Part shown: positions 10,556 to 32,010 of the stretch, in pieces | Layout of the letters: the number at the start of each line of letters is the position of its first letter | How positions within the stretch are numbered: the stretch's first letter is position 1 | Source of the DNA: a virus | Reading direction: 5' to 3' (one strand) | Virus record (IMG/VR): IMGVR_UViG_3300045988_080644 | Length of the DNA stretch: 64,000 bases | The notes under the pieces: generated by a model | The model's input: the letters and a program-made list of their open reading frames with translations, nothing else | The model's database searches: none | Told to the model about the DNA's origin: nothing | Position numbers and translations under genes: made by a program

Positions 10556-10728
10556 TAATGAAACACATTCATATCATCAAAGTGCTTACATCCATATTTA
10601 GCAAAATCACTATATAACTTATCCATATTAGCTATACATGGATATTTTAAACATCTTTTACAACTTCTTTCTGGATGTTTATAAGTTAATCCATTTGGAT
10701 CTTTATAGTTTACTTTACCAATAGGCAT
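10555..10728 (-). CDS. small Cys-rich protein (57 aa)
   Basis: Hand-translated as MPIGKVNYKDPNGLTYKHPERSCKRCLKYPC...GCKHFDDMNVFH; TAATG stop/start overlap with the downstream gene; below the ORF-track size cutoff. Confidence 0.4.
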   Translation of the reverse strand: MPIGKVNYKDPNGLTYKHPERSCKRCLKYPCIANMDKLYSDFAKYGCKHFDDMNVFH

Positions 10729-11078
10729 GCAAGAATGATATTTAATATTATACTAATCTTAGTTACAACTTTATATTTTTTGCGTGAACTTTGTAATTGT
10801 GTTATTTTAATACTATCCTTTTTAATAATAGTATTATATTGCTTTTCATTAATTCTTCTTATAGAATCAGTATGTAACCAAGATTTATTTATCTTTTCTA
10901 GTGTTTCAATCTTCTTATTTAATAATGGAACTTCTTTTGTATATTTCTCATGCTCTAGAAATATAAGATTAGTTGTTTTCAGTTGTTCCGGAGTTATTGT
11001 AATGGTTGATGTAGTTTGTGAAAAACTGTATGTCGGCAGAAGTATCATTAGACATAATAATAGCTTTCTTATCTTCAT
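10710..11078 (-). CDS. secreted or membrane-anchored protein
   Basis: N-terminal signal peptide MKIRKLLLCLMILLPTYSFSQ and a C-terminal hydrophobic segment. Confidence 0.5.
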   Translation of the reverse strand: MKIRKLLLCLMILLPTYSFSQTTSTITITPEQLKTTNLIFLEHEKYTKEVPLLNKKIETLEKINKSWLHTDSIRRINEKQYNTIIKKDSIKITQLQSSRKKYKVVTKISIILNIILACLLVK

Positions 11079-11286
11079 ACGTCTCTCTTATTTTTACTAT
11101 TTTAATTGTTAAGGAATCCTTAGTGTGATTTAGAGTATCCCTAACTAAAGAATCTCTAATTATTTCTTTATTAGAAGGGATACTCTGTATATTATTATTT
11201 AATTGTTCTATACGTGCAATTATAAATATGATTCCTACAATTATAAATAGTTTAATCAACCAGGCTAGAACCGTTCTCAACTGCAT
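10969..11286 (-). CDS. hypothetical membrane protein
   Basis: N-terminal TM helix; the 110-nt out-of-frame overlap with 10710..11078 makes one of the two boundaries doubtful. Confidence 0.4.
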   Translation of the reverse strand: MQLRTVLAWLIKLFIIVGIIFIIARIEQLNNNIQSIPSNKEIIRDSLVRDTLNHTKDSLTIKIVKIRETYEDKKAIIMSNDTSADIQFFTNYINHYNNSGTTENN

Positions 11287-11806
11287 CTACTAGGGTCTTT
11301 GTTTTATCAATAACTCCCTGCACATCTACCCCTCTAGACATTAAAGTTAATACTGCTTGTTCTGCAGGAGAAGCATTCTGAATGTACTCTTTCTCTTTCT
11401 GAATCTGCTCATATTTAGCCTTGTTAGCATTATAATCCTTAATGACTATCTCAGGATTCTTAATAAAGTGATTAATTTTCTCTGTCAGGAGTGCATCAAT
11501 ACACTCTTTAGTAATTACACCGCCTTTACCAACAAACCAACAAGGATCTCCTGCAAGAGCCTTCTTATAAGCTTGTTCTTTACCAAAAGTGAGATTGAAC
11601 TCATCTTCCGGATTATATACTGCAATGCCGATAGATATGGCTCGTACAATCTCGAAAGAATCCTCAACACCTGGAATATCCCAAGTTGCAGTAAGACCCT
11701 CCTTTACTGGCATACTTACAGCACAAGCAACTATTAATCTTTCAACACCCTTAAAATCAACAAACTGACCAAGCTTATAACTAGCAATTTCCTTCTTCAT
11801 TTTCAT
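11252..11806 (-). CDS. hypothetical protein
   Basis: ORF track. Confidence 0.6.
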   Translation of the reverse strand: MKMKKEIASYKLGQFVDFKGVERLIVACAVSMPVKEGLTATWDIPGVEDSFEIVRAISIGIAVYNPEDEFNLTFGKEQAYKKALAGDPCWFVGKGGVITKECIDALLTEKINHFIKNPEIVIKDYNANKAKYEQIQKEKEYIQNASPAEQAVLTLMSRGVDVQGVIDKTKTLVDAVENGSSLVD

Positions 11807-12081
11807 TTACTATTAATTAGTGTATAACCCTCTTTAATTAAGTAGGATTCTGGAGCAAATTCCAGAGTTAGAAATCTAATAAAATACTCATCTGCTTTTT
11901 TCTTCCTATTTATGAAGTCTTTCTTTTTAAGTTTTAAAGGTTTATTAGTACTATATTGTTTTTCCTCAAATAAAGAAACTCCACCTTTAAATACTTTATA
12001 GATAGAATCTTCATAAATAAAAGAACTATGTGTTTGAACTATTTGACCGTCCTTCTCGTAAATCGCTACTGAAGTTGTCAT
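11803..12081 (-). CDS. hypothetical protein
   Basis: ORF track; 4-nt overlap with the downstream gene. Confidence 0.55.
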   Translation of the reverse strand: MTTSVAIYEKDGQIVQTHSSFIYEDSIYKVFKGGVSLFEEKQYSTNKPLKLKKKDFINRKKKADEYFIRFLTLEFAPESYLIKEGYTLINSK

Positions 12082-12535
12082 ATATTAAATTAATTATATA
12101 CTTAATAAACTTATTTTTAGCAATTTCGTAAAAAGAGTTCCAAACATTATTGGTATAGAAGTTGTATATATCTTGTGAAGTAATATTATTATAATGAAAA
12201 TATTCTTCCTCACTATATGTACCTACATTTATCCTATACGTATCTTTAATAGGTTTAGCCTCCAGACATATATGATATACTGAATCATCTAAATCTTCAA
12301 AATCATCAGGATAACCATCATCTTCATAACGAGGTTCTGAAACTAATACTTCAAATGGAATATCTTCTCTTTCAAGTATTTCTGCTATTACATAGGCTAC
12401 ATAACAACAACCACCATAGTTTGTATGATATATTGTATTTAAACAATCACACAAACTATTTATTTTATTAAATAGGTCCGAATAATTATCTTCCGACTTC
12501 TTTATAGATCTCCTCTTGAATTTGCTTGAAAACAT
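12026..12535 (-). CDS. hypothetical protein
   Basis: ORF track. Confidence 0.55.
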   Translation of the reverse strand: MFSSKFKRRSIKKSEDNYSDLFNKINSLCDCLNTIYHTNYGGCCYVAYVIAEILEREDIPFEVLVSEPRYEDDGYPDDFEDLDDSVYHICLEAKPIKDTYRINVGTYSEEEYFHYNNITSQDIYNFYTNNVWNSFYEIAKNKFIKYIINLIYDNFSSDLREGRSNSSNT

Positions 12536-12761
12536 TTAAATATTCTTTCAAGGTCGTAATCTCATCTTTTCCATATTTGCTATTAATAGCATATCTAATT
12601 ATTCTACCAATAGCAGAATCTAAAGGCATACCATAGCCCTCTAATTGAAATTCTTCTCTAGGATTAGTTTTACTATTCACTTTTCTAAGCAAATATAAAT
12701 CCCATAGTGGAGAAGTATCATTTATTGGTTCAATTCGATAAAAATTACCTTGAATTATCAT
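12486..12761 (-). CDS. hypothetical protein
   Basis: ORF track. Confidence 0.55.
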   Translation of the reverse strand: MIIQGNFYRIEPINDTSPLWDLYLLRKVNSKTNPREEFQLEGYGMPLDSAIGRIIRYAINSKYGKDEITTLKEYLNVFKQIQEEIYKEVGR

Positions 12762-13016
12762 TTAAATATCGCGATTAAGCATTTTAAAGAATTTAGAAAC
12801 TGGATTAGAACCTGCAAGGCTCAGCCCATCATGACACCAAATAGTTAATAATACGCCAAATACTATTACTTCTATGATGTTAAGTACAGGAACAAATAGC
12901 AGTAATAATGCTATTATAAATGCATAAAGAGGTATGCCTATCTTAGGCTTTAAATCTATGACAAGCATAAATTCAATAGCTGCCACAACTAAACAGAATA
13001 TAAATAAACCAAACAT
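12762..13016 (-). CDS. small multi-pass membrane protein
   Basis: Almost entirely hydrophobic 84-aa ORF. Confidence 0.6.
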   Translation of the reverse strand: MFGLFIFCLVVAAIEFMLVIDLKPKIGIPLYAFIIALLLLFVPVLNIIEVIVFGVLLTIWCHDGLSLAGSNPVSKFFKMLNRDI

Positions 13017-13065
13017 AACAAATTATTTATCAAGTCCTACTAATGTTGATGAGTTACCTGTAACC

Positions 13066-13596
13066 TTAGGAAGGTTGCTAAATGATGATTCTTTCTGAAT
13101 TTTCTTCATATAATGGAAAAATTTTTAAACGTTCTCTATCTGCAATTATTTTAGCTTCTTCTAAAGTATCATAGTATCCAAAAGAAATACCTTTAATTCG
13201 TACTCTGTATTTACCATTTTCAATAGTAACATTTCTTATTCCAGTTTTGCTTTTATCAACGGAGGTATTAGTAGCATTATCTTTCTTAGATAACTCCCTT
13301 AAATTACTTTTTCTGTTATCTAGAGTATTATGATTAATATGATCAATTACATTATTTTCATCCGTTTTAGACATAATCATATTATGCATCCAATATTGTT
13401 TTCTAACACCTTCTTTTTGTATCTTAGTACGAACCCCGTCTACATGCCCTTTACGATTATTTGTAATGTGCCATGTTCCTTTTATGCTAGATACTTTTTG
13501 GAAGTCTTCCTTATCTACATAACATTCTAATTGATTATCCTTATAATTTATGTAGATTATATAATAATCCTATTCTTCTTTATATTTATTTTTCAT
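13066..13596 (-). CDS. free-standing HNH homing endonuclease with AP2-type DNA-binding domain (TAG-recoded)
   Basis: IDHINHNTLDNRKSNL (HNH) followed by GIRNV..GKYRVRI (AP2-like). Checked codon by codon: the frame stays open from ATG 13596 through an in-frame TAG at 13570-13572. The annotated TAG stop at 13078 reads on 4 codons to TAA at 13066. Confidence 0.7.
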
Positions 13597-14384
13597 TATT
13601 TTAAATCATTTAGTCCAATAAGTACAGAACTCCCTGCACCCACTACTTTTGGAGATTCTCCAGACCATTTCTCGATCCACTGCTTCTTAACAAGCAATGG
13701 TGTAAGAGAAGCATTTACAATGGCATTAGCCTTAGCCTCTGCTTCGGCTACTACAATCTTCTTCTTTGCTTCTGCCTCAGCTACTTGTACTTCATTAGCT
13801 GCTTTCTGTGCTAACTGAATAGCTCTGTTCTTAGCATCTACAGCTTCTACAATAGTCTTAGGATATTGCAAACCACTAGTAAACTGGTCAAGTACAAATC
13901 CTTCCTTGTCAAGAAGTTTAGAAAGACGCTTCTCAATTGCCTGTTCTACAGCTTCACGATTTGACACAATCTGGTCTGTAGTAAATTTATTAATCTCAAT
14001 ACGACAGGCATCCTTTACATACTTAAATACAGGACCATTAATCACATCAGTTAATTCTTTGCGATATTTACGAAATACCTTTGGAGCAGCACCATCCTTA
14101 ACTTTAAGATTTACATTTGGATCAACTTTAAATTCAGAACCATCCTTAGCATTAATTGTAAATGGCTCATAGTCAATAGTCTGTACATAGGTAGGATACT
14201 CATATACTTCCTGAGTAGCCGGATTATAGAATACTCGTCCAGTCACCATAGATACATCATCTACACCTCTTTCAGAGCCATAGAGATTAACTAAGATACC
14301 TTCACAACCAGCATCGATACGTTCACAACTAGTGAAACTTAATGACAACATTAAAGCACTCGCAAATAAAAAGACTTTTCTCAT
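13596..14384 (-). CDS. SPFH/band-7 (prohibitin-like) lipoprotein
   Basis: Lipobox LSFTSC; C-terminal AEAEAKKKIVVAEAEAKANAI alanine/glutamate-rich helix typical of SPFH proteins. Confidence 0.6.
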   Translation of the reverse strand: MRKVFLFASALMLSLSFTSCERIDAGCEGILVNLYGSERGVDDVSMVTGRVFYNPATQEVYEYPTYVQTIDYEPFTINAKDGSEFKVDPNVNLKVKDGAAPKVFRKYRKELTDVINGPVFKYVKDACRIEINKFTTDQIVSNREAVEQAIEKRLSKLLDKEGFVLDQFTSGLQYPKTIVEAVDAKNRAIQLAQKAANEVQVAEAEAKKKIVVAEAEAKANAIVNASLTPLLVKKQWIEKWSGESPKVVGAGSSVLIGLNDLK

Positions 14385-14638
14385 TTAAATAAACTTTTTA
14401 ATTTATCAACACTTTCAACAACTAAGGTAACTACTAACACAGCCATAGTTGCTAATATTAACATACCCATAATGCAACAAAATGTACTCTCACTGCTAAT
14501 TAAGTAAGTACACATACTTATTAAATACATCATAGCTATAAAGCCAATGACATATTTAATAACTTTAAAAACCAATTTATACTTTCTCAAGAATTTTGGG
14601 GTTTCCATAAAATATAATGTTTTCTTTCGGTAAACCAA
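14381..14638 (-). CDS. small membrane protein
   Basis: Two hydrophobic helices; the start is uncertain. Confidence 0.5.
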   Translation of the reverse strand: MVYRKKTLYFMETPKFLRKYKLVFKVIKYVIGFIAMMYLISMCTYLISSESTFCCIMGMLILATMAVLVVTLVVESVDKLKSLFK

Positions 14639-14872
14639 TTATACCAAATAATTATCTTATCTTGTTGTATGTCTATATAAGGATTTAATAATATAAGACA
14701 TACTAAAACAATAATTAAGATAATCATCGTGTTTTTACTGAACCTGGTTTAGTTGTTGCTTTCTGTACTGAAGCTGGTAATTTTGACCACCAATTCTGCT
14801 TCATCTGTAACCACTCACGCTTATGCTTTGCTTTCATTTTCAAATTAATTAGAATATTTAATTGTAATCTAA

Positions 14873-18618: not shown

Positions 18619-18691
18619 TATACTATAAGTAGGTTGACTTTGTAATAGGATCTTATTCTCTACCATTACTAGTTCTCTACTTTATTATTAG

Positions 18692-18775
18692 TTGTCTAGG
18701 AGAGATTTGAACTCCCGAAGCTAAATAGCAGCTGATTTACAGTCAGCCGTGTTTGACCACTTCACATACTAGACA
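18692..18775 (-). tRNA. tRNA-Tyr(GUA), class II
   Basis: Acceptor TGTCTAG/CTAGACA, anticodon arm GCTGA-CTGTAAA-TCAGC, long variable arm, T-loop TTCAAAT. Confidence 0.85.
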
Positions 18776-18793
18776 ATAAATTCTTTTTATGAG

Positions 18794-18873
18794 TTGCAGA
18801 GGCAGGATTCGAACCACTTTGTGCGACCTCTTGGTTATGAGCCAAGCGAGATGACCAACTTCTCCACTCTGCG
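18794..18873 (-). tRNA. tRNA(CAU), initiator-like, aberrant T stem
   Basis: Anticodon arm CTTGG-CTCATAA-CCAAG; C1/A72 mismatch at the top of the acceptor stem; the T stem GCA[CAAAGT]GG/CCTGC needs a 6-nt bulge. Confidence 0.5.
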
Positions 18874-18884
18874 ATATTAAAAAG

Positions 18885-18956
18885 AGCTTCAAGTAGGATT
18901 CGAACCTACGACCTGCTCATTACAAGTGAGCTGCACTACCACTGTGCTATTGAAGC
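18885..18956 (-). tRNA. tRNA-Thr(UGU)
   Basis: Canonical cloverleaf; anticodon arm GCTCA-CTTGTAA-TGAGC; T arm GTAGG-TTCGAAT-CCTAC. Confidence 0.9.
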
Positions 18957-19101
18957 TAGAATAAAGGCGAATATGGCATTAGACGGGCAAACTATCGTGA
19001 CCATATTCTAATAATACATTGAGCTATCAGGCATACTCGTGGATTGCCACCGCTACCTCTAACAACCACCCAGTTAAACGCTAGGTGCTCTCCATTATTT
19101 G

Positions 19102-19175
19102 TAGGTGATATAGGACTTGAACCTATGACCTCTTGCTTATCAGGCAAGCTATCTAACCAACTGATATAATCACCT
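19102..19175 (-). tRNA. tRNA-Ile(GAU)
   Basis: Acceptor AGGTGAT/ATCACCT; anticodon arm CTTGC-CTGATAA-GCAAG. Confidence 0.9.
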
Positions 19176-19242
19176 AAATTGTTGGACCACTAAGGTTAGA
19201 ATTCTGTAGTGTTTCCGGTTACACCATAGTACAATTTGTTTG

Positions 19243-19319
19243 CGGAATATAAGGGACTCGAACCCTTAGTTTTACTAGAGTGACAGTCTAGTTCCCTTAC
19301 CAACAGGGCTTAATACTCC
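19243..19319 (-). tRNA. tRNA-Asp(GUC)
   Basis: Anticodon arm CTAGA-CTGTCAC-TCTAG; T arm AAGGG-TTCGAGT-CCCTT. Confidence 0.85.
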
Positions 19320-19610
19320 GGGCGCCTCTTGTGTACACATTTCTTTTCGAGAAGGTGATGAACCTTAGAAATAAGAGGCATATATTTAAATTTACTCTCC
19401 CAACATCAGTAAGTACCCCTTTGGCACTTACTAGTAGAAATCTAATTAAATAACTGTAAATGGTAATACTCGATAGTCTTTAACATCGTACCAAGCTGCT
19501 ACAGTTTTCATTCCTTTCCACCATGATTTGATAATTCTTTTCATACAGTTTAAAATTTAATTGTTAATTAAATAATCTAATTGTATAGAAGGAAGAAGAA
19601 GTAAACATCG

Positions 19611-19688
19611 TGCGAGATGTGGGAATCAAACCCACGCAAGCCTTCTGGTTGGAAGCCAGATATGCGCCTTCAGCTACACTAATCTCGC
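19611..19688 (-). tRNA. tRNA-Gly(UCC)
   Basis: Acceptor GCGAGAT/ATCTCGC; anticodon arm TCTGG-CTTCCAA-CCAGA; unusually long (8-nt) variable region. Confidence 0.75.
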
Positions 19689-19699
19689 ATATTTATTAG

Positions 19700-19774
19700 T
19701 GGACCACGGTGGGACTCGAACCCACGACATCTACCTTGCAAAAGTAGCGTTCTAGCCAGCTGAACTACGAGCCC
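19700..19774 (-). tRNA. tRNA-Ala(UGC)
   Basis: Anticodon arm CTACT-TTTGCAA-GGTAG; G3-U70 wobble and A73 present; the acceptor stem needs one bulged nucleotide. Confidence 0.75.
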
Positions 19775-20620: not shown

Positions 20621-21718
20621 TTACAATTCCTTAATATTGGAATCTTCAGACTTTCCTAGATATATCTCATTTATAGTACAATTACTTGTGCGAAATTGTT
20701 CTATAAAACGTATTTTACCAATAATCCTTGGAGACTTATCTTGATAATCACATATAGTAGGAATATATGCAGTCTTTAAACAATCCCAATGAGTTATGAC
20801 AATGTTAAATTTACAATGATAAGTTTCACGGTAATTATCTAAACAATGTCTTTCAATAGCTCTTTCGAATAAAGTATAGTCAAAAGGACCCGTCTTAAAC
20901 TCTCCTTGTGGTCCATCATTAGTATTTGATGGTTCTTCTAGAGTAAAATATGTATCCAAGTCCATAGAATAAGGATTGTACCCATTTCCATGTCTAGTTA
21001 AATATGGACGCATAACTAAGTATACCTCTGCATTTTCTAGACACTTTTCTTGGATTCCATTTAATCCTACTTTGCTAGGAGTACAATGAGGCATAAATCC
21101 TCTTTCCATATCTAGAAGGAGACCTTGAGAACCCTCCCAAATAACAGTATCAACCTCATCAGGATAATAAGTTCCAATTATAAAGGTCTCTGGGTGTTCT
21201 TTAATAAAGGTACAAGCCTCTTTAAAAAGATCATCTAATTCAGTGTCTCGTTCTAGATTGTGATAATCCCTTATAGTTTGTAGAATTACATCTGTATATT
21301 CATTTATATAAGGGCACATACGAGCACTATAAGTTACATTATCTTTGTTTCTTTTAAAACAAGCATGTATTCCTTTACCACAAGTTCCATTATACTTTAC
21401 TCGTCCATCCATAGAATCAGCTAATACATCATAAGGTGTAATAACTCTACAGTTAGGATTTATATATAACTTAGGAACTTCAATACCTTCATTAACTAAG
21501 ACCTTATACTCATTATAGATACATATCGGGTCAATGAATACTTCTTTATATAGACAAGTTGGTACTCCTAGTAAAACACCACTTCCCCAAGAAGAACATA
21601 CGTGTGATTTACCTTTATAAACCACACGATGCCCAGCTTGTGGACCTCCACTAAATCTAATGACAACAGGTTTATGGCTATTCATACATAACCATTGTAC
21701 TACATTACCTTTACCCTC
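20621..21718 (-). CDS. adenylosuccinate-synthetase-family (PurA/PurZ-like) enzyme, exon 2
   Basis: EGKGNVVQWL...RFSGGPQAGH, GTCGKGIHACF, WEGSQGLLLDMERG and LTRHGNGY align with the PurA motifs GDEGKGK, GGHNAGH, GTTGRGIGPAY, FEGAQGTLLD and STRVGAGP. The frame is open 33 nt upstream of the annotated ATG, back to a TAA. Confidence 0.75.
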   Translation of the reverse strand, partial: EGKGNVVQWLCMNSHKPVVIRFSGGPQAGHRVVYKGKSHVCSSWGSGVLLGVPTCLYKEVFIDPICIYNEYKVLVNEGIEVPKLYINPNCRVITPYDVLADSMDGRVKYNGTCGKGIHACFKRNKDNVTYSARMCPYINEYTDVILQTIRDYHNLERDTELDDLFKEACTFIKEHPETFIIGTYYPDEVDTVIWEGSQGLLLDMERGFMPHCTPSKVGLNGIQEKCLENAEVYLVMRPYLTRHGNGYNPYSMDLDTYFTLEEPSNTNDGPQGEFKTGPFDYTLFERAIERHCLDNYRETYHCKFNIVITHWDCLKTAYIPTICDYQDKSPRIIGKIRFIEQFRTSNCTINEIYLGKSEDSNIKEL

Positions 21719-22975
21719 CCAATTGTTAGCTTATAGGCTTTTTATCCTATAATTCTGGAGATTACTCTCATACTCTTTCGAGATACGTCTGTCAATTCAG
21801 ACCAGTGCGGCGTACATTTTCACCATATTACTAAAAGTAACTTAGGGCAGGACACTCTTGGGTCTATTATATTTATTCAAGACCTACGCTCTACAATACC
21901 AATTAGCCTTACGCAATCTAATTAGTTATCACGGTATTATCTAGGAATTATAGACTTCACCGTTTTTGCCCTGTAATAATAGTTACAGTTTCCCATAACT
22001 ACGACGAAATTCTAAATATCTATTATATTTTCTATCTAAGTACATTGTTGAATTTTTATATAAATAATCTATGCATTGATATGCTACATTGTTAGTTAAA
22101 AGAATCTAATAAGTTTTACCATTATTATGTTTAGCATATAAAGTTTTTTCACCACAAGGTAGATATCTCATCATCCCTTGCAAGAAATCTTTAGTTCCAA
22201 TTACATTAAACTCAGCATATTTATGTTCTTTATCTGAATAAGTGACACATCCATCACCATCAAAGTATCCTCTAAGAAAATGACGAATTAATTCTTCTTT
22301 ACTATATCGATCAGAACTTATAAATATGTCTTCGTTAGGAAATTGTAGTATTAAAGACTTTTGAGGAACACATCCCTTTGAAATTAGATTTTGATAAATA
22401 TTTCTATTATCAAACTTCATTCTACAAGTTATATAATTATCTTTTTCTTGAGTTCTAATTTCACTAGAATAATGTAATAAATCACAGAATTTTTGCATAT
22501 GGCTAATATCTGCATATTGCAAATTCATTGCAAATGTTGGTCTATCTTTAGCTACATACCCATCAGCAAATATGAAACCTAACCAATAAGCCTTTTCTTC
22601 AGTATCTATTACATCAAAGAAATGTTCATTAAGATCCCACATTCCTCTTTTATCTACTACAGATGCACCCATTAATGATAAATTCTTTTTAATGGTTTTT
22701 TCTGTAACATTATATTTAATTGCTAACTCTTCTATGGTTTTACCAGAATTATATAAGGATAAAGCTTCATCTTTATTATAAGTCTATCTAATTTCTTTAA
22801 GAGTTACTCCTTTATATACTAAATATTTTTTTACACTATCTTTACTAACTTTATTATCTTTACATATCTGGGAAATTGATAATCCCTAATCTACATACAT
22901 AGACACTATATTTAAAGTGTCAAACTTTTCAATAGTACTTTTTCTTATCATATAATATTATTTAAAAATTAATTC
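21719..22975 (-). mobile_element. putative group I intron carrying a LAGLIDADG homing endonuclease ORF
   Basis: Separates the PurA-like P-loop halves (..IVLGSLFGD | EGKGN..). The 5' exon ends in U and the intron ends in G. The GC-richer 3' part contains GNRA-capped and long-range helices. P1/IGS pairing was not identified. Confidence 0.55.
21983..22951 (-). CDS. LAGLIDADG homing endonuclease with N-terminal HTH (TAG-recoded)
   Basis: Two LAGLIDADG motifs (WLGFIFADGYV, FLRGYFDGDGCV). Checked codon by codon: 322 codons open from ATG 22951 to TAA 21983, with 3 in-frame TAG (22886, 22784, 22106) and no TAA or TGA. Confidence 0.8.
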
Positions 22976-23029
22976 ATCACCAAATAGAGATCCAAGTACT
23001 ATCTGATTACGAATTTGTTTGCTGTCCAT
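22976..23029 (-). CDS. PurA/PurZ-like enzyme, exon 1 (MDSKQIRNQIVLGSLFGD)
   Basis: The ATG at 23029 overlaps the end of the upstream gene. IVLGSLFGD supplies the missing first strand and start of the P-loop (PurA: VVVLGTQWGD-EGKGK). Confidence 0.55.
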
Positions 23030-23819
23030 AGCTGTTAGAAACAATACGAGCAATAGATTCACCTACGTGCTCTTTATCTGAAATAATAAGATTATCCCCT
23101 ACATAAGGCTTCCAACTGTTAGAAACCCTCTCTACACCATAGTAACCACCATGCTCAACATGAATATGATAAATATCCCACTTCTCAGCACATTCTCTAT
23201 ATATGAAGGAAGTGGCTAAATCTTCACCACACTCATCACCTATATAATGAGTTACTGCTTCTTTAGGAAGAGTTTTATGAATTGGCTCATCACTAATTGT
23301 AATTAAACAGCCTTTAATACCTCTTTTCTCTAGGGCGTCGGTCTTAATGTGATTAGTAGCAAAATACCAACACATATGAGGATCCTCTCCGTTATTACCG
23401 CCTCCTCTACCTTCAAGATCAACCTTACGGAGCCATTTCTCCATAAGTTCATCACTCGATTCAAACTGTCCTACTTGTAAAGGGGCTTCTTCATAGCAGC
23501 CTTCTACATCACCAAATGCCATAAAACAGATTTGAGGATTATCAATACCCGCCTTCATAATACTAGCTACACAATCTGGCAGGGTATTATCAATAAGATA
23601 TTTAGGAACTTTACCCATAGAACCTGTCTCATCAAGGGCAATAATAATAGGAAATGATTCTGGATGCTCCTCAGAATCACAAGACTCTCTGAAATTAATA
23701 TTAAGAGGATTCATTTCAGGGTCTAAATTCTTCTTACTAAATGTCTTTTCGATAGACTGAGATCTGTAACTATGACTTCTAGCTACAGCATCACTATATG
23801 AATAACTACCACATCCCAT
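23007..23819 (-). CDS. von Willebrand factor A (vWA) domain protein, TerY-like
   Basis: MIDAS-type IIIALDETGSMG near the start of the domain; about 270 aa, as in TerY. Confidence 0.65.
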   Translation of the reverse strand: MGCGSYSYSDAVARSHSYRSQSIEKTFSKKNLDPEMNPLNINFRESCDSEEHPESFPIIIALDETGSMGKVPKYLIDNTLPDCVASIMKAGIDNPQICFMAFGDVEGCYEEAPLQVGQFESSDELMEKWLRKVDLEGRGGGNNGEDPHMCWYFATNHIKTDALEKRGIKGCLITISDEPIHKTLPKEAVTHYIGDECGEDLATSFIYRECAEKWDIYHIHVEHGGYYGVERVSNSWKPYVGDNLIISDKEHVGESIARIVSNSYGQQTNS

Positions 23820-24880
23820 TATGCTTCCTCCTTTGCTTGTGATTTAATATTACTAGCTAATGCACTAACTAAAGCATTTACATTATCTATAAGTGTATCT
23901 ACCTTAGCATTAATCTTATCTAATTCTGATGGTTCTGGAGTCTCAGCAGCGGGCTTGTTTGCTGCTCCGAACATATTACCAAACATGTTGCCACCTCCCA
24001 TAAGCTGACTCATAAGCGTTATAGTCATAAAATCAGAACTACTCTTATCTGCAAGAGCCATAAGCATTATAGGATTAAATCCTTTACCTGCATTATTAAA
24101 CAATCCACCACCATTAAAAGCAGACATCATAAGCAGATTCTTAACATCGAATCTGTTGCCGCTCATAAATGCAAGTGCCAGTGGATTAAATCCATTAGAA
24201 GAATCAAAGTTAAATGGATTGACAATAACTCGGAATGTTGCAGAACCCATCAACTCATCTTCAATAGCAATCTTATTATTGATATTACCATTGAAGTTCA
24301 TAATCTTGATAGAACCATCTTCTGCTTTAGCCTTAACTACACCATAAGATCTGCCTGACTTTACAATATCTCCAATTACAATCTGGTCAGAATTCTTACT
24401 AATATTGTAAATACAAGGCATAGGGTAAGTCATCTTGTATTTCTTGAGTTTGCCAGAAGGAGACATACCTACATAAGCACCGTCACTATTCTTAAAGCAG
24501 AGCACACCATCAGTAATACTAATCTTAGCACCCTCTTCAGCCTGCGGCATAAAATCATCGTACATGTCTTTAGTTAAATCACCAAAGACATCACTCATAT
24601 CCATTTTTCCAAATTGTTCCATACTTGAAATATTTTTACCTATAGTATTAATTTGTTTACCATTAATCTCAGAAATTGTTACTGTCTCATAACTTTCTTG
24701 TTCTCTAGAACTTGCATAAGTCCAGACAACTTGAAATTTACTGTCATAACCTACAAGTTGTACTAAATCACCTCTTTTAAGTCCTGGACACTCATTAGCT
24801 ACTATATATGGTACAGTAGTTTCTGAATTCATTCTCTCAGGACTTAATTTAGTATTTGTAAATATACCTCTAATTATCAT
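23819..24880 (-). CDS. hypothetical protein with G/N/M-rich low-complexity region
   Basis: ORF track; 1-nt overlap with the vWA gene. Confidence 0.6.
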   Translation of the reverse strand: MIIRGIFTNTKLSPERMNSETTVPYIVANECPGLKRGDLVQLVGYDSKFQVVWTYASSREQESYETVTISEINGKQINTIGKNISSMEQFGKMDMSDVFGDLTKDMYDDFMPQAEEGAKISITDGVLCFKNSDGAYVGMSPSGKLKKYKMTYPMPCIYNISKNSDQIVIGDIVKSGRSYGVVKAKAEDGSIKIMNFNGNINNKIAIEDELMGSATFRVIVNPFNFDSSNGFNPLALAFMSGNRFDVKNLLMMSAFNGGGLFNNAGKGFNPIMLMALADKSSSDFMTITLMSQLMGGGNMFGNMFGAANKPAAETPEPSELDKINAKVDTLIDNVNALVSALASNIKSQAKEEA

Positions 24881-24882
24881 AA

Positions 24883-25110
24883 TTATAAACTATTAAGTAT
24901 ATTTTTATATCTATCTAAATATTTAGAACCTAATGCAGACATTATCTTATAAAATCCTGACCTAAATCCATCATCAGAGCTAACTAATTGTTTTATGCTC
25001 TTTATATAATAATCAGGTATATCAGATCTACATTCATGTTGCATTAAGTTTCTAACTAGTGCCATTTTATTTAATATTTCACCAGCTGCCTTAGCTTTAT
25101 CTTCAGTCAT
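24883..25110 (-). CDS. hypothetical protein
   Basis: ORF track. Confidence 0.55.
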   Translation of the reverse strand: MTEDKAKAAGEILNKMALVRNLMQHECRSDIPDYYIKSIKQLVSSDDGFRSGFYKIMSALGSKYLDRYKNILNSL

Positions 25111-25320
25111 ACTTTATTATAGCTAAATATATTAATAAGATGACTAAAGTCATTCCTAGCATATCTATAAACATTCAAATAGCCCTAATAGACTTAAATG
25201 GATAACGTTTCTGATCATAACTACTAATGAAGTTTTCTTTTACTTTAGCTTCATTAATACCTGTGAGTCTAATGGTTTGTTCTTTGTTTTTTAAAGAATC
25301 AAAATAAGTTATTTCAAATT

Positions 25321-25728
25321 TCATATAAAAGATTCTCTGTTATTAAATTTATTTTGAGCATCAAGTACTCCTTCTTTATCTGTAATATCTACAATAAGTC
25401 CTATTTGTCGTAACCAAACATCAAATGGACCACTGTACCCCTGGTCACCAACCCAACCTCCTTTACAAAATACTATCTTCTTCCAAACGAAGATAGCACA
25501 TAATATCCCATCAACTTCACATAAATGTTTGCCTTCTGGAATATCTAAGAATGTTGGAGCTAAACCTATCCCTTCTCGATAATATCTAGATATTCGAGTA
25601 TGAAATACATCATCCTGCATAACTACTGAATCAGTTTCATAATTAGTAGACAGTTTACCGTGCAAATAAAAATCAGGCTGATAAATCCAATTCTCGTTTC
25701 GACTACTTAATGGCTTAAATTTAATCAT
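25321..25728 (-). CDS. hypothetical protein
   Basis: ORF track. Confidence 0.6.
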   Translation of the reverse strand: MIKFKPLSSRNENWIYQPDFYLHGKLSTNYETDSVVMQDDVFHTRISRYYREGIGLAPTFLDIPEGKHLCEVDGILCAIFVWKKIVFCKGGWVGDQGYSGPFDVWLRQIGLIVDITDKEGVLDAQNKFNNRESFI

Positions 25729-25880
25729 TTATGTTTCTTTTTCCATCGAAACCATAAACCTAATACAATACCAATTATAAACCAAACTAGTATTGTAATA
25801 ATAAAGGTTCCAATATTAAGTACAATCATAATCTAATATTTATAGAGAGGACTAGCTATTAACCAGTCCTCTCTCGTTAA

Positions 25881-28340
25881 TTACTTGAATAACTTTTTAA
25901 TCCAATAGAAAAGCTCTCTACAAACTGGTACAATTGCAGTAAGACCTACAATCTCTAACCATGTTTCAATACTTAATGGTTCTGTTCTGAACACATCGCC
26001 ACCAAATTGAACTATCAAAATTTGACCAATAAATATAACCAAACATATTCCAATAAATGCAGGATTACTTAACAAACCGTTAAAGATACTTCTGTCTTGT
26101 CCAAATACTCTTGCATTAAACAAGTTCCAGAATTGCAACATAACAAAGATAGTGAAGAACTCTGTAAGGCTATATGTATTACTAATCAGCAAATATAATA
26201 ATATGCCAAAATACAAAATACTTACACCAAAGATTTCATACCACATTCTCTTAGTGATAATAAATGCCTTAGGATCACGAGGCTGTTCAGACATTACTGC
26301 TTCATTAGCTGGTTCCGTAGCTAATGCTAAAGCAGCAAAAGTATCCATAATTAAGTTAACCCACAGCATTTGGATAACAGTGAATGGTAAGTCTACTCCA
26401 ATAAATGGACCTACACAAGCAATACCAATAGCTACAACATTTACAGTAAGCTGGAAGAGAATAAAGTGCTGAATATTCTTATACAAGCTTCTTCCCCACT
26501 TAACTCCTAAGATAACGGAAGGGAATGAATTATCAAGAAGAATAACATCAGCTGCATTCTTAGCAATATCAGTACCATTATTCATAGCTACACCTACCTC
26601 AGCTTGGTTAAGAGCGGCTGAATCATTTGTACCATCACCAGTTACGGCCACTACTTCTCCCATACTTTGGAATCTCTTAACAAGTGTCTGCTTGTCTTCA
26701 GGTTTAGTTCTAGCAAATACATCTACCTTACGTAAATTAGTATCTGTCTGGGTTTCGACTTCCTTACCAAGCATCGTATTAGGAGTTTGAGAGATATTAG
26801 CTTGGGCAGCAATAGAAGCAGCTGTTTCAGGATTATCACCTGTCACAATCTTAACTTTAATTCCCGCGTTTCTAGCAGCCTGAATTGCATCAGGTACATT
26901 ACTTCTCACTGGGTCTTCAATAGCTACGTAGCCATCCCATATGAAGTCCGAGAGGGTATTTATATCAGAACCGATCTTGTGTGCAAAAGCAATACATCTT
27001 CTGCCTTTAGATTGTTGTTCTGCAAAATTAGGTATGTTCTCATTAGAGCAGAAATTCATTACTATTTCTGGAGCACCCTTAATATAGGTAACTGTCCCAT
27101 CACTAGTAATCATATATTTATTCTTAGAATTAAATTCTACTCTACCTGTTATATGAGTTTTATTTCTTTTATCAGTGATATCAACTGATTTTTGTACATA
27201 TTGCAAACAAGCCCCCTCCGTAGGATTTCCTACTACTTCTCCAGTAGGACTAAGATTAGCAGTAGAATTAAGTACAATATTATTTATAACAGCATTTCTA
27301 TCTGTAAAGTCCTGGAATACTACTTTCATTTTATTCTCTGTAAGAGTTCCTGTCTTATCAGTAAGAATAAGAGTTGTAGCACCAAGAGTTTCACAGGCAT
27401 GCATCTTTCTAATAAGATTATTAGCTTTAGCCATTCTCTTCATAGAATAAGCAAGAGCAAGAGTTACTGCCATAGGTAAACCTTCTGGTACTGCTACTAC
27501 AATGAGTGCTACTGCAATCATTAAGAATTGTAAGCAATCATTTACAATATCAATAGCATCTTTGCCCACATATCCCTGCTCTATAAATATATAACGTATA
27601 GCAAGAGACACAATAAGAATACCTGCAGCTGTGAATGCTATCTTGTTAATTAAGCTAGCTAATCCATTAAGCTGTTTGTTAAGAGGAGTTTCTACATCAG
27701 TAATAGAAGATGCTTCTCTAGCAGTCTTACCTACTTCTGTTTCATCTCCTACTGCAAATACTTCGCCTACACAAGTACCTTCTGCTACGATAGTGCTTTT
27801 ATAAATTCTATTTGTAGGATAGGTAGCAGTCTCTGATTCAAAATTAGTTTTAGTTACAGGATTTGTTTCTCCAGTTAAAGAAGCTTCACTTACTTTCAAA
27901 TTGCTATATTCTTTAACAATAATATCAGCAGGAACTTCTTCACCGGCTTCAAGTATTACAATATCCCCTACAACTAAGTCCTTACGAGCTACTTGAATTA
28001 CTCCATTATCTCGTCTTACCTTAACTAGAGTATCATCACTGCTAGTTAAAAGAAGGTCAAACTTCTTAGCTGCTGACCAGGTATTCCAAAAACCAATACC
28101 TACAGCTAAAGCAATAGCTACAATAATACCAATAGGTTCTGTAAACTCACCCTTTACAAATCCTAAGGCAATAGATACTGCAGCTGCAATAAGTAATATT
28201 ACGATAAGCGGATCTTTAAATCCATCAAATAACATTACATACCAAGCATCTCTCTTTGGAGGTGTCAATACATTAATGCCATGTCTAGCACGTGAATCTT
28301 CTACTTCTGTTAAGCTAAGACCGTAATTTATATCTGTCAT
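25881..28340 (-). CDS. P2-type cation-transporting P-type ATPase (Ca2+-ATPase-like)
   Basis: DKTGTLTENKM phosphorylation site, TGDN, VAVTGDGTNDSAAL hinge, TM4 AVPEGLP, TM6 NLIMDTFAALALATEP. Confidence 0.9.
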   Translation of the reverse strand: MTDINYGLSLTEVEDSRARHGINVLTPPKRDAWYVMLFDGFKDPLIVILLIAAAVSIALGFVKGEFTEPIGIIVAIALAVGIGFWNTWSAAKKFDLLLTSSDDTLVKVRRDNGVIQVARKDLVVGDIVILEAGEEVPADIIVKEYSNLKVSEASLTGETNPVTKTNFESETATYPTNRIYKSTIVAEGTCVGEVFAVGDETEVGKTAREASSITDVETPLNKQLNGLASLINKIAFTAAGILIVSLAIRYIFIEQGYVGKDAIDIVNDCLQFLMIAVALIVVAVPEGLPMAVTLALAYSMKRMAKANNLIRKMHACETLGATTLILTDKTGTLTENKMKVVFQDFTDRNAVINNIVLNSTANLSPTGEVVGNPTEGACLQYVQKSVDITDKRNKTHITGRVEFNSKNKYMITSDGTVTYIKGAPEIVMNFCSNENIPNFAEQQSKGRRCIAFAHKIGSDINTLSDFIWDGYVAIEDPVRSNVPDAIQAARNAGIKVKIVTGDNPETAASIAAQANISQTPNTMLGKEVETQTDTNLRKVDVFARTKPEDKQTLVKRFQSMGEVVAVTGDGTNDSAALNQAEVGVAMNNGTDIAKNAADVILLDNSFPSVILGVKWGRSLYKNIQHFILFQLTVNVVAIGIACVGPFIGVDLPFTVIQMLWVNLIMDTFAALALATEPANEAVMSEQPRDPKAFIITKRMWYEIFGVSILYFGILLYLLISNTYSLTEFFTIFVMLQFWNLFNARVFGQDRSIFNGLLSNPAFIGICLVIFIGQILIVQFGGDVFRTEPLSIETWLEIVGLTAIVPVCRELFYWIKKLFK

Positions 28341-28361
28341 TTTTTCTGTTATTATAATTAA

Positions 28362-28988
28362 TTAAAGAAATGCAATTGTTGGACGCTTCATAGCATCAAT
28401 TGAAGTCCAACCTCCGAACTCACCAACTGCCTTAAAGCGCCATTCACCATCCTTCTTATAGGCAATACCAAGGATAACCGCCTGCTTATCAGAAATCTTA
28501 GTACCCTCTTTGCCGTCTTCAAGATTAAACTTAGCTAAGACATTTACAGGAGTATTAGTGTTTCTCTGTACTTGATCACCAGTATAGATACGAAGACCCA
28601 TATAAGGAATCTCACCAAATGTCTGATGTGTAAAGTTATTGAGAGTAAATGCAATATACTCAACACGTGGGTCAAGTTCATTCAAGCATACCTCAATAGT
28701 CTCATTATCAAGACCATCATTACCATTGGTGTCACCTGAGCGGTCATCACCACTATGACGGATACCTGGAGCACTCAAATTGTAATAAGCTACTTCGCCA
28801 ATACAATTCTTATTGGCATCATACAGAAGAACAGTAGAATCCAAATCTACTTTCTCAACAGACCCACCAATACCGAACAGTCCACGATGCTGAATGGCGC
28901 CCCAATTTGAACCAAAGTACAACTTACTCAAACCATTGTTAGACTCTTTAGACAGATTAATTCTGCCACCTTTACTTAAATTAATCAT
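28362..28988 (-). CDS. TerD-domain protein
   Basis: N-terminal INLSKGGRINLSK and the Ca-binding loop SGDDRSGDTNGNDGLDNETIEV. Confidence 0.8.
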   Translation of the reverse strand: MINLSKGGRINLSKESNNGLSKLYFGSNWGAIQHRGLFGIGGSVEKVDLDSTVLLYDANKNCIGEVAYYNLSAPGIRHSGDDRSGDTNGNDGLDNETIEVCLNELDPRVEYIAFTLNNFTHQTFGEIPYMGLRIYTGDQVQRNTNTPVNVLAKFNLEDGKEGTKISDKQAVILGIAYKKDGEWRFKAVGEFGGWTSIDAMKRPTIAFL

Positions 28989-29096
28989 AAAACTTTACTA
29001 AATAATTGTAAATTACTAATTAACTAAAAATGGGAGTACCTAATTAAAGATACTCCCTTATAGAATCAAGAATTAAAACCGAATTAACTTAATTAA

Positions 29097-29699
29097 TTAA
29101 ATAGCTGGAGCATCTGGCAAGATGAGTCCATAGCCACGAAGAATATCACGATAGATAACGTTCTGATAGCTACCCTTATCTTCTCCAAGAGCCTTGAACT
29201 TCCAATCACCATTATGGCGATAAAGTTGGCAAAATACAATACAGCGAGACATACTTGCATCCTCAGTGAGATCAAACTTAGCCAGAGGAGTAGTATTACC
29301 TTTAGCATACAAGTTGCAATAAGCATTGTTAACCATACCAAAGTTCTGCTGACGATTCTTAGCATCGTGAATATTAACTAAGATAATAATTTTCTGGACA
29401 TCTGCAGGAACCTTAGTGGTATCTACTACAATTGTCTCATCATCTCCAGCACCAGCACCTGTACGATTATCGCCTGAATGCTTAATAGCATCTTTCCAAT
29501 TTGGATTATTGTAGAAAATGAAGCCATCATCAGGATCTACTGCTTTATCCTGAGCATTCAAAGGAATAGTAGCTACATCCAAATCAAATTCTACACCTGC
29601 CTGAGTTGCTATATCCCAACCCAAACCAATTGAAAACTCTGTTACACCATTTGCTTCTTTAGCGAGGTTGATGTTACCTCCTTTACTTAATTGAATCAT
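29097..29699 (-). CDS. TerD-domain protein
   Basis: MIQLSKGGNINLAKE and SGDNRTGAGAGDDETIVVD; start set at ATG 29699. Confidence 0.8.
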   Translation of the reverse strand: MIQLSKGGNINLAKEANGVTEFSIGLGWDIATQAGVEFDLDVATIPLNAQDKAVDPDDGFIFYNNPNWKDAIKHSGDNRTGAGAGDDETIVVDTTKVPADVQKIIILVNIHDAKNRQQNFGMVNNAYCNLYAKGNTTPLAKFDLTEDASMSRCIVFCQLYRHNGDWKFKALGEDKGSYQNVIYRDILRGYGLILPDAPAI

Positions 29700-29713
29700 A
29701 ATTGTGAATTTAA

Positions 29714-29905
29714 TTAAAATTTGCCGCAAAGTTTACGGCTAATTATAGTCATAACTTTATCATAAGTTAACTTTTTAGCTTCTTTCTCAGAATAACCTTC
29801 TATAATATAAGAATCTACTATTTTCTCAATTGCAGCATTCATTTCAGAGAATAAGTACTTTTGTTCTTTAGTTAACTTATCATCGTATAAATAAGATTTA
29901 TTCAT
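29714..29905 (-). CDS. hypothetical protein
   Basis: ORF track. Confidence 0.5.
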   Translation of the reverse strand: MNKSYLYDDKLTKEQKYLFSEMNAAIEKIVDSYIIEGYSEKEAKKLTYDKVMTIISRKLCGKF

Positions 29906-30173
29906 CTACTTGTAAATCCGCCTGAGTACTTTCTAAGTAATCCTTATTATCTAAGTCTTTAATAAGATTAACTAAGTCTTCCACAGTCTTTAGATTCTGA
30001 ACTTTATCATCTTTAATAGGATAACCAAACTCCTGTTCACATTCAATGATAATTTCTACTAAATCAAGGCTGTCTATGTACAAATCATCGAAAGTATCTG
30101 CACTAGTTATTTTTTCGCTTTCTATTCCAAGGACTTCACTAACAATGCTTATTACTTTTTCTTCTATACTCAT
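29898..30173 (-). CDS. acyl carrier protein-like
   Basis: LYIDSLDLVEIIIECEQEFG contains the DSLD phosphopantetheine-serine motif in a 91-aa acidic helical protein. Confidence 0.7.
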   Translation of the reverse strand: MSIEEKVISIVSEVLGIESEKITSADTFDDLYIDSLDLVEIIIECEQEFGYPIKDDKVQNLKTVEDLVNLIKDLDNKDYLESTQADLQVDE

Positions 30174-30976
30174 TATATATCTTCCCTTTTAGTTTTAAAC
30201 ACATGCTCTGTATGAGTAGAAGTAAATCCTGGATTATACTGCAATTTCTGAATACCAAGTACTTTATTATACATCACATTAGGAAAAGAATCCAACATAG
30301 AGTTCTGCTGTCTTACTGTTTCCATACATGCTTCTTCTAACTTGTAATACTCTTCTCGTTGTCCATTTACAAACCCAGATAAATCACCATAAAATTTAGT
30401 AAATTCAGAATAAGGAATATTTTGATTCTCTTGAAGCCATTTCCAAGTAACTTGTGCTCCATCATGTCTTCCTTCCATAATCATATTAGTGACTTCTAAG
30501 AAAGTATTCTTGTTTAATTCACAAATTTCATACTTCTGAAGATACACTTTCCATAATTTATCGAAGAACATTTTACGAGCATACTGTTGCTTGTCTAGCT
30601 GATTGGTATATTCAATATTCTTATTATACAATTTTATTATAGCACCAATAGGACTTATAAACCAACACAATATAATAATTCCAGGAATTACAATCCACTT
30701 TTTCTTAATATTTACATTTGAATAGTCTTCCCTCTCATTACCAAATGTACATATAGCAGTTATAGCTAAAACAAAGGTCGCGATAAATAAAATCCACTGA
30801 ATAATACAATGACAGAAACCCATTCTTATAGCGTTAGGGGAACCCTCTAAGGTTAATGGACCTTTATCACTAATTATATCATCTAATATCTGTGTATTCC
30901 ACAAATATAAAAACAGGATAGCACATATAATAGATGCACCTAAAAATAATAAACCATGCTTAATATTATTCTTCAT
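30173..30976 (-). CDS. membrane protein, unknown function
   Basis: Three or four N-terminal TM helices followed by a soluble domain; 1-nt overlap with the ACP gene. Confidence 0.6.
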   Translation of the reverse strand: MKNNIKHGLLFLGASIICAILFLYLWNTQILDDIISDKGPLTLEGSPNAIRMGFCHCIIQWILFIATFVLAITAICTFGNEREDYSNVNIKKKWIVIPGIIILCWFISPIGAIIKLYNKNIEYTNQLDKQQYARKMFFDKLWKVYLQKYEICELNKNTFLEVTNMIMEGRHDGAQVTWKWLQENQNIPYSEFTKFYGDLSGFVNGQREEYYKLEEACMETVRQQNSMLDSFPNVMYNKVLGIQKLQYNPGFTSTHTEHVFKTKREDI

Positions 30977-31626: not shown

Positions 31627-32010
31627 TTATTTAAGAATCTTAACCTTTACATGTCTTATACTAATTCTTTTAGAGTTTTTGGGGTGTATCAATATATCGA
31701 CTCTATGTTTAAATCGTTTATTAGTAACATCCCTAACTTCATACACTCCAAATCCCTCTATAAACACCTTTTTAGGCTTATTCTTTGGAAATAAATAAAG
31801 TAAATCGCGGGAAACTGCACACCACTTAATGTGACCCCTTTTCAAATGACGTAAATTAATTTTAGAACCATCAGCTGTAACTAATGGTTTACTGTCACAT
31901 TGACTCTTTACAGGTTGATAACAAGTAAGAGTTACATGAGTAGTTGTTTGGCAGAAAGCCCCACTCATGAAGCTTAATAATAATAAAAATATTAATATCT
32001 GTTTCCTCAT
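31627..32010 (-). CDS. secreted 3D/DPBB-domain (MltA/RlpA-like) protein
   Basis: Signal peptide; VTADGSKI...CAVSRDLL...IEGFGVYEVRDV...RVDILI resembles the 3D-domain pattern. Confidence 0.5.
   Translation of the reverse strand: MRKQILIFLLLLSFMSGAFCQTTTHVTLTCYQPVKSQCDSKPLVTADGSKINLRHLKRGHIKWCAVSRDLLYLFPKNKPKKVFIEGFGVYEVRDVTNKRFKHRVDILIHPKNSKRISIRHVKVKILK

Follow-up and report, generated by a model that had tools for sequence, protein, structure and literature searches.

A TerD–TerD–pump gene cassette with a predicted role in calcium control in a large tailed phage, probably of Bacteroidales

Introduction

Besides the gut Jug phages, 81 huge phages and 4 phages of 159–197 kb have been reported to carry calcium-translocating P-type ATPases (PMC12880540; preprint PMC12363816). 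The Jug-phage pumps are highly transcribed and related to pumps of Bacteroidaceae, and a gene of 77–91 aa located upstream was named as their proposed partner; each Jug genome also has three terD genes, one of them next to a pspA-like gene, which were described as separate stress operons (Sci Adv 2026; PMC12880540). Here we describe IMG/VR virus record IMGVR_UViG_3300045988_080644, a stretch of 64,000 nucleotides (referred to below, at its whole length, as the window), in which two genes for TerD-domain proteins stand directly before the gene of a PMCA-type pump. We propose that these three genes are a phage cassette that would control cytoplasmic calcium in the infected Bacteroidales cell, and from the sequences we put the probability of this reading at roughly 0.6. 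Like the window pump, the Jug and other gut phage pumps are phage-encoded, PMCA/LMCA1-like, and known from gut metagenomes, with key residues intact and terD in the same genomes; manipulation of host Ca2+ was proposed by the authors, and phage pumps related to that of the window are highly transcribed in human gut samples (PMC12880540). The Jug phages have genomes of 360–402 kb for which TerD–pump linkage was not reported, whereas the window genome is of ~180–190 kb and has its two TerD genes directly before the pump.

Among bacterial stress domains, TerD is one of the most widespread. It binds Ca2+, an example being the TerD of Klebsiella (structure 2KXT). TerD is also found in phage-borne Ter operons, for which a role in inter-phage conflict was proposed (Iyer et al., 2021; PMC7824862), with the arrangement TelA-vWA-TerC/DUF475-TerD in Caulobacter phage CcrColossus and vWA-TerC-TerD-PRTase-HAD in Acinetobacter phage ME3. 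These operons resemble the present locus in being TerD-centered stress cassettes on large phages, and TelA, TerB, and vWA companions occur in some lineages. They differ in having a TerC-family membrane protein and no P-type ATPase, while the window has a pump, and its vWA protein is unrelated to theirs at the profile level. Among the window proteins scanned with Pfam, namely those of the region described below, those of the flanking open reading frames (ORFs), and 40 ORFs of at least 120 aa outside 15.7–35.5 kb, there was no TerC, TerB, TelA, phosphoribosyltransferase (PRTase), HAD, or ATP-grasp protein of the classical Ter system, the only HAD match being the P domain of the pump itself.

Apart from the Jug-phage paper, which treats terD separately, we found no literature linking TerD to a calcium ATPase. 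The components are therefore known, and the recurrent TerD–pump cassette appears to be new. The initial annotation of the window had taken its combination of genes to be undescribed, which is not true of a cation pump on a phage, already published, and is true of the TerD–pump linkage, which is not reported in that publication (PMC12880540).

Source of the Window and Loci Compared

The window has a G+C content of ~31%, and nearly all of its genes are on the minus strand up to ~58 kb. Pump genes identical or near-identical to that of the window are found on IMG/VR viral contigs of 180–190 kb and on many ENA and Logan contigs of 180–197 kb, and, in relatives, genes for T4-type Y16D, endonuclease VII, RNase H, and helicases are among the neighbors. 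Because of these near-identical pumps on large viral contigs and of these neighbors, the source is a large tailed phage; its host is probably a member of the Bacteroidales. The clade is absent from a collection of 50,697 GenBank phage records, in which the 8-kb region had no megablast match, and the top protein-level match to the window pump in that collection showed 42% identity.

Three sets of loci were compared. The first consisted of 47 related viral loci, each with a 10-kb flank and with pumps 60–100% identical to the window pump (48 loci with the window), and all of their same-strand ORFs were clustered. The second consisted of 81 viral loci, 80 of them from a scan with the pump of MT840059 as the query and the other being the GenBank contig MT838269. 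The bacterial set comprised the best 80 loci of a pump-profile scan across 185,579 species-representative genomes.

The region at 23007–30976 is filled by ten co-oriented minus-strand ORFs, and all the genes described in the initial annotation are present there. All genes tested gave ratios of nonsynonymous to synonymous substitution (dN/dS) of 0.04–0.17 against close relatives (Nei-Gojobori method), and the gene content is thus real and not a chance pattern. A scan for sigma-70 promoters was uninformative (73 sites observed, 74 expected).

The Pump and the Two TerD Proteins

The conserved core consists of three minus-strand genes (29699–25881), listed here in the direction of transcription:

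29097–29699, minus strand: TerD2, canonical TerD-domain protein of ~200 aa, first gene of the core (Pfam TerD, PF02342, 198.1 bits; gathering threshold, 25.3)
29032–29057, minus strand: GC hairpin resembling a terminator, with a T run after it, in the interval from TerD2 to TerD1 (consensus scan only)
28362–28988, minus strand: TerD1, divergent TerD paralog of 208 aa (Pfam TerD, 81.9 bits), which stops 21 nt before the start codon of the pump
25881–28340, minus strand: PMCA-type (P2B) calcium-translocating P-type ATPase of 819 aa (TIGR01517, Pfam, motifs)

The pump has the domains that Pfam calls Cation_ATPase_N, E1-E2_ATPase, Hydrolase, and Cation_ATPase_C, and scored 628.3 bits against the NCBIfam model TIGR01517 (PMCA-type calcium ATPase; cut-off, 507.05), the sole NCBIfam equivalog that it passes. 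The catalytic motifs TGE(T/S), DKTGT, KGAPE, DPxR, TGDN, and GDGxND were all found, the A-domain motif being TGET in the window subclade instead of the TGES of other clade members. The initial annotation had recognized a full-length P2-type Ca2+ pump from DKTGT, TGDN, GDGTNDS, PEGLP, and the N..D of M6, all of which are in place, and this identification is borne out, as is the presence of transport-site residues on alignment. Thus M4 VAVPEGLP(MA), DKTGTLT, M5 FQLTVNV(VA), and M6 LWVNLIMDT match plant ACA8 and human PMCA2 almost residue for residue, and TGE(T/S), PEGLP, DKTGT, KGAPE, TGDN, GDGTND, M5 QLT[VI]NVVA, and M6 WVNLIMDT are kept in the 48 loci of the first set. The single ion site is PMCA-like, with the Glu of PEGLP in M4 and the Asn/Asp of NLIMD in M6; M5 does not contain the Glu found at SERCA site I.

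The solved structures closest to the pump are those of plant ACA8, human PMCA1/2, SPCA1, and Listeria LMCA1. It shares the domain order of PMCA, ACA8, and LMCA1 (6a69, 8qmp, 6zhf) and is nearly identical to PMCA and ACA8 in M4, M5, and M6, while the overall identity is low (the alignments are local) and the calmodulin-binding N- or C-terminal extension of the solved pumps is absent. The window pump starts at its Cation_ATPase_N domain and stops just past TM10, without any autoinhibitory extension of this kind. Because the calmodulin-binding extension belongs to eukaryotic PMCA/ACA only and bacterial members of TIGR01517 lack it too, membership of the family is not excluded by its absence. The gene is under strong constraint (dN/dS, 0.04–0.05 against close relatives). 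Judging from its sequence, the pump is a complete PMCA-type P-type ATPase, for which Ca2+ transport is predicted. PMCA and LMCA1 exchange Ca2+ for H+, with a single Ca2+ exported for each ATP.

Another cation could be the substrate, for example Mn2+, as with SPCA/PMR1 and TerC-family exporters, or the pump could metalate envelope or virion proteins, with TerD as a metal-binding partner. TerC-family proteins are Mn2+ exporters, and Ter operons have been linked to several metals; moreover, the PMR1-type model was the second best in NCBIfam for this pump, and SPCA1 is among its best matches in the Protein Data Bank (PDB). The PMR1-type score nevertheless amounted to only 442 bits against a cut-off of 798, the SERCA-type model was also below its cut-off, M5 and M6 are nearly identical to those of PMCA and ACA8, and Ca2+ binding at the TerD loop is documented (2KXT). 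We therefore consider transport of a cation other than Ca2+ unlikely.

An insertion of 1.1 kb interrupts the pump gene of two close relatives (L011 and L012), precisely within the conserved motif GDG|TND (approximate locus position, 11711). It points to a second mobile element, intron or intein-like, among these phages, besides that of the PurA-like gene described below.

TerD2 is a typical member of its family. Its ORF extends from 29097 to 29729, the real start probably being the ATG at 29699; the protein aligned to the TerD structures 3ibz and 2kxt with E values of 1e-50 to 1e-53, and its canonical loop, HSGDNRTGAGAGDDE, was aligned with the calcium-binding loop of Klebsiella TerD. The loop of TerD1 is a longer acidic variant, HSGDDRSGDTNGNDGLDNE, with the conserved clade-wide pattern HSGDD[R/L]xGDxxGxDGxDNE, and its binding of Ca2+ is only putative. 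Intact GDN(R)TG..GDDE loops, which had been attributed to both proteins, are thus found in TerD2 and not in TerD1. TerD1 is always the pump-proximal TerD, with 45–55% identity in distant relatives, and purifying selection is evident for both genes (dN/dS against close relatives, 0.05–0.06 for TerD1 and 0.04–0.15 for TerD2).

Conservation of the Three Genes in Related Phages

The co-conservation of pump and TerD genes proposed in the initial annotation was found both within this clade and, as described in the next section, in unrelated pump lineages. The pump is present in 48/48 loci of the first set (window counted), with the two TerD genes directly upstream in 45; the others are a locus with a single TerD, a locus cut by the contig end, and L036, which has no nearby TerD. 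The order is always TerD2-TerD1-pump, and it is kept down to 60% pump identity. While the neighboring genes change freely from locus to locus, the three genes are kept as a group.

In all 30 distant loci, a TerB-like gene is inserted between TerD1 and the pump, which is not the case in the window subclade, where the gap is 21 nt. It encodes an acidic protein of 115–126 aa with ADGK..EE repeats, and the copy in L033 matched Pfam TerB with 31.7 bits (threshold, 24.4). Examples are as follows:

TerB-like gene, between TerD1 and the pump: L014, 9595–9942; L016, 9562–9921; L033, 9586–9936; L043, 9478–9858

Some distant relatives (L014, L043, and L151) have a gene for an SPFH protein immediately adjoining the TerD/pump cassette. 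The window itself has an SPFH/Band_7 protein at 13596–14384 (minus strand), ~11.5 kb downstream of the pump in the direction of transcription. The most widely kept neighbor after the pump and the TerDs, found in 40 of the 48 loci, encodes a 127-aa protein with a predicted signal peptide (31627–32010, minus strand), for which the family searches gave no match.

Recurrence in Other Phage Lineages and the Bacterial Control

MT840059, a small contig from a human-fecal virome, has a pump fragment followed by three TerD genes. In the second set, 1–4 TerD genes are immediately beside the pump in 78/81 viral loci, and the three exceptions are contigs of 2.7–5.5 kb; the side on which the TerDs stand, upstream or downstream of the pump, differs between lineages. 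In nearly all loci of this set, the pump shares 30–34% identity with that of the window, and the pumps form at least four deep lineages. Representative pumps show 30–44% mutual identity, save one related pair at 71%, and ~30–35% identity to a Bacteroidales pump. TIGR01517 was the best model for all six representatives tested, of which five scored above the cut-off and one (L146, 505.2 bits) fell 2 bits short.

The companions in the second set include TelA, YceG, SPFH, and, in 64/81 loci, a PspA-like gene. The L151 cassette (7380–14724) reads SPFH ... pump-TerDx3-PspA-like, and the L134-type cassette (4350–11998) reads YceG-TelA-TerDx3-pump. Some of the loci with the arrangement pump-TerDx3-PspA-like possibly belong to Jug phages. 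In Bacillus subtilis, the yceCDEFGH operon encodes three TerD-like proteins, the TerC-like YceF, YceG, and the TelA-like YceH. The L134-type cassette resembles this operon, except that its transporter is a PMCA-type pump instead of TerC, while the window clade has only the TerD pair and the pump.

The bacterial loci gave a different picture. The best 80 bacterial pumps in the scan all belong to Bacteroidales (Bacteroides, Phocaeicola, Mediterranea, Alistipes, and Prevotellaceae), with 43–47% full-length identity to the window pump and the same NCBIfam equivalog, and they are somewhat longer (~860–890 aa against 819 aa); none of these 80 chromosomal loci has TerD, TerB, or SPFH within 10 kb of the pump. 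Because of this absence, we consider that the TerD–pump linkage was assembled and kept in phages. The window pump has 46% identity to Bacteroidales pumps and only 31% to the other phage pumps, which means that the pairing arose, or was renewed, more than once. The Bacteroidales lineage is probably the source of the window pump, which points to the host range. Judging from the bacterial control and the independent phage lineages, the TerD–pump pairing is more than shared ancestry.

Several points weigh against cytoplasmic calcium control by a joint TerD–pump cassette. To our knowledge, the function of TerD is poorly understood even in bacteria. The ion specificity, the direction of transport, and contact between TerD and the pump are all things that we infer. 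L036 is the only relative with a pump and no TerD nearby. A terminator-like hairpin, which could act as an attenuator, separates the two TerD genes in the window. For the Jug phages, the published description places the terD regions and the pump in different operons (PMC12880540). Adjacency in a plastic early-gene region could also partly reflect shared regulation rather than physical cooperation.

In the extreme case, the pump and the TerDs would be independent auxiliary genes with no cooperation between them, neighbors only through their place in a hyperplastic early-gene region, and the separate transcription units of the Jug phages, L036, and the hairpin would all be explained. Such independence is hard to reconcile with adjacency in ~125/129 viral loci of the two sets together, in both gene orders and with pump lineages ~70% different in sequence, with its occurrence in 0/80 bacterial loci, and with a trio that stays while the surrounding genes turn over. 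Chance company of this kind therefore seems improbable to us.

Possible Role in the Infected Cell

Control of cytoplasmic calcium by the cassette can be pictured as follows. The pump would be inserted in the inner membrane of the host early in infection and would extrude Ca2+, while the soluble TerDs would act as Ca2+ buffers or sensors and may feed the pump or tune it; we pair this possible tuning with the pump's lack of a regulatory tail of its own. More speculatively, the cassette would hold free Ca2+ at a low level when, in the calcium-rich gut, the envelope leaks, the leaks arising perhaps from genome injection, superinfection, pore-forming abortive-infection effectors of the host, or pre-lysis damage. 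The TerB, TelA, YceG, PspA-like, and SPFH companions in other phage lineages are membrane-stress proteins, fit this picture, and suggest that the trigger is envelope damage or leakage. The purpose of the cassette would be protection of the infected cell, superinfection exclusion, or both.

A bolder version makes the TerDs dedicated calcium-sensing subunits of a viral PMCA-type pump, as a prokaryotic and viral counterpart of calmodulin–PMCA, which with PspA (ESCRT-III-like), SPFH, TelA, and TerB would form a calcium-triggered membrane-damage response keeping the infected cell alive until lysis. We regard this as rather unlikely; if true, it would provide the first concrete molecular role for TerD.

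Superinfection exclusion, or inter-phage competition more generally, could instead be the whole purpose, the cassette shielding the infected cell against either secondary phages or pore formers, and the pump replacing TerC as its membrane effector. The mechanism, ion handling, would overlap with the calcium control proposed here, and it is the purpose that differs. The same role was proposed for phage-borne Ter operons (Iyer et al., 2021; PMC7824862). Ter systems of plasmids and bacteria provide phage inhibition and resistance to colicins. Known phage Ter operons have the order TelA-vWA-TerC-TerD, and in the L134-type cassette the pump is at the expected place of TerC. On the other hand, none of the ten proteins of the region matched a PADLOC defense model, and TerC, TelA, and genes for signal biosynthesis (PRTase and HAD) are missing among the window ORFs scanned. 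Superinfection exclusion as the sole purpose is possible, and to our mind doubtful.

The association of TerD with a PMCA-type pump in more than 100 phage loci, in several pump lineages, and not beside the pumps of the hosts, leads to the testable hypothesis that TerD works with calcium efflux. It refines the earlier report of phage calcium pumps in that TerD is the most consistent genomic partner of these pumps, and it makes a single testable system of the TerD domain and the calcium pumps newly reported from phages. It further suggests active management of calcium in infected cells by abundant Bacteroidales phages of the gut, which is of relevance to bacterial calcium signaling, to the biology of membrane damage and abortive infection, and to the ways in which phages reshape dominant commensals of the gut.

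Neighboring Genes

The other seven ORFs of the region, together with the gene that overlaps it and an insertion in that gene, are as follows:

20621–23029, minus strand: PurA-like adenylosuccinate-synthetase homolog (Pfam Adenylsucc_synt), with exon 1 at ~23029–22974 and exon 2 at ~21718–20621
~21719–22973, minus strand: insertion of 1255 bp in the PurA-like gene, with a LAGLIDADG endonuclease ORF at 22106–22672 (Pfam LAGLIDADG_3)
23007–23819, minus strand: vWA-fold protein with a putative metal ion-dependent adhesion site (MIDAS), PHROG 2971 (AlphaFold 2 model, Foldseek)
23819–24880, minus strand: ORF of 353 aa, no family match; its stop overlaps the vWA start codon
24883–25110, minus strand: ORF of 75 aa, no family match; close and mid clades only
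25321–25728, minus strand: ORF of 135 aa downstream of the pump, no family match; only 17 loci, in close and mid clades
29714–29905, minus strand: ORF of 63 aa between the acyl carrier protein and TerD2, no family match
29898–30173, minus strand: orphan acyl carrier protein (ACP) of 91 aa, outside the core (PP-binding, PF00550, 53.9 bits; threshold, 20.8)
30173–30976, minus strand: membrane protein of 267 aa with three N-terminal transmembrane helices and a long helical hairpin, outside the core (transmembrane scan)

The initial annotation had joined a TerY-like vWA protein, the pump, the two TerDs, the ACP, and the membrane protein, with unknown ORFs, into one module of 8 kb. Such an eight-gene system would fit the co-orientation, tight packing, and overlapping start and stop codons of genes that are all under purifying selection, and vWA proteins do occur in classical Ter operons. 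Synteny largely refutes it, as set out below for the vWA gene, the ACP, the membrane protein, and the small ORFs, and we consider a module of this extent very improbable.

The vWA-fold protein had no sequence match in Pfam, NCBIfam, or the PDB, and only structure prediction resolved its identity. Its AlphaFold model (pLDDT, 89.9; 27 homologs) matched integrin I and VWF A domains in the PDB (Foldseek probability, 1.0; E value, 4e-6) and VWFA proteins in BFVD, and the residues D63-x-T65-x-S67, T174, and D177, invariant in the 27 homologs, are consistent with a MIDAS site. PHROG 2971 has more than 1,100 homologs, none with a Pfam annotation. The vWA/MIDAS part of the earlier assignment is thus upheld. 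Its TerY-like part was rejected: hhalign against the Ter-operon vWA proteins of ME3 and CcrColossus gave a probability of 0.5% and an E value of 0.13, and the ME3 protein ranked 48th in BFVD for the vWA-fold model.

The 3' end of the vWA gene overlaps the start of the PurA-like gene by 23 nt (23007–23029). The same overlap is found in L050 (15309–15331), in which the PurA-like gene is intact and encodes 383 aa, and the two genes also adjoin in L014 (2239–4154), L044, L147, L148, and L155. The pair stays joined in distant relatives and in phages with unrelated pumps, in which it is 6–8 kb upstream of the TerDs and not downstream of the pump. The vWA gene belongs with the PurA-like gene, not with the pump, relative to which it shifts.

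In the window, the PurA-like gene is split by the 1255-bp insertion within its P-loop codons, the junction reading GDE|GKG. The insertion is precisely absent from L001, L002, L004, L009, L011, and L013, and present in L012; an Rfam search aimed at a group I intron gave no match to it at the gathering threshold or at E values up to 1. Assignment of the PurA-like protein to PurZ of the 2-aminoadenine pathway was considered and found no support in the PDB, all 17 matches (17/17) having been deposited as adenylosuccinate synthetase and none being named PurZ.

The ACP has the phosphopantetheine serine in the motif YIDSLDLVE (DSLD) and scored just under the cut-offs of the generic NCBIfam ACP models (e.g., 66.7 against 71). 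An ACP-like ORF was found in 18/132 viral loci, all of the window's own subclade, and the Pfam scan of window proteins described above revealed no phosphopantetheinyl transferase, ketosynthase, acyltransferase, or ligase as a partner. The membrane protein matched PHROG 1383, "virion structural protein," over residues 89–265 (E value, 3e-11), and its AlphaFold 2 model, of moderate confidence (pLDDT, 73), had no significant fold match in the PDB. In the window, the start of the ACP gene overlaps the stop of the membrane-protein gene, in keeping with the translational coupling of an ACP (DSLD) to a polytopic membrane protein that had been noted earlier. In sister genomes with 94% pump identity, two extra ORFs are located between these genes, and the coupling is therefore incidental. 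The ACP and the membrane protein are subclade-specific neighbors, not part of the core.

The membrane protein and the ORFs of 353, 135, 75, and 63 aa are confined to loci in which pump identity is ~77% or more. The 63-aa ORF had tblastn matches in only 12 of the 14 closest loci, with none in L008, L009, or farther loci, and the 353-aa ORF shows 36% identity in L008 and was not detected in distant loci.

Other Features of the Window

ARAGORN found 16 tRNA genes in the window, and Rfam gave 17 tRNA matches. They form three clusters (18691–19774, 44250–44605, and 48467–49430), and the anticodon loop of the tRNA at 44533–44605 is irregular. A tRNA on the plus strand (60021–60094) has the anticodon CTA, that of an amber suppressor (labeled "Pyl" by ARAGORN), and is located where the polarity of the genes flips to the plus strand near 58 kb. 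An amber suppressor at this strand switch may indicate TAG recoding of a late-gene block, as described for some gut phages. Two RAGATH-1 hammerhead ribozymes are encoded on the minus strand at 53971–54055 and 54949–55054, with scores of 81 and 70 bits against an Rfam gathering threshold of 56.

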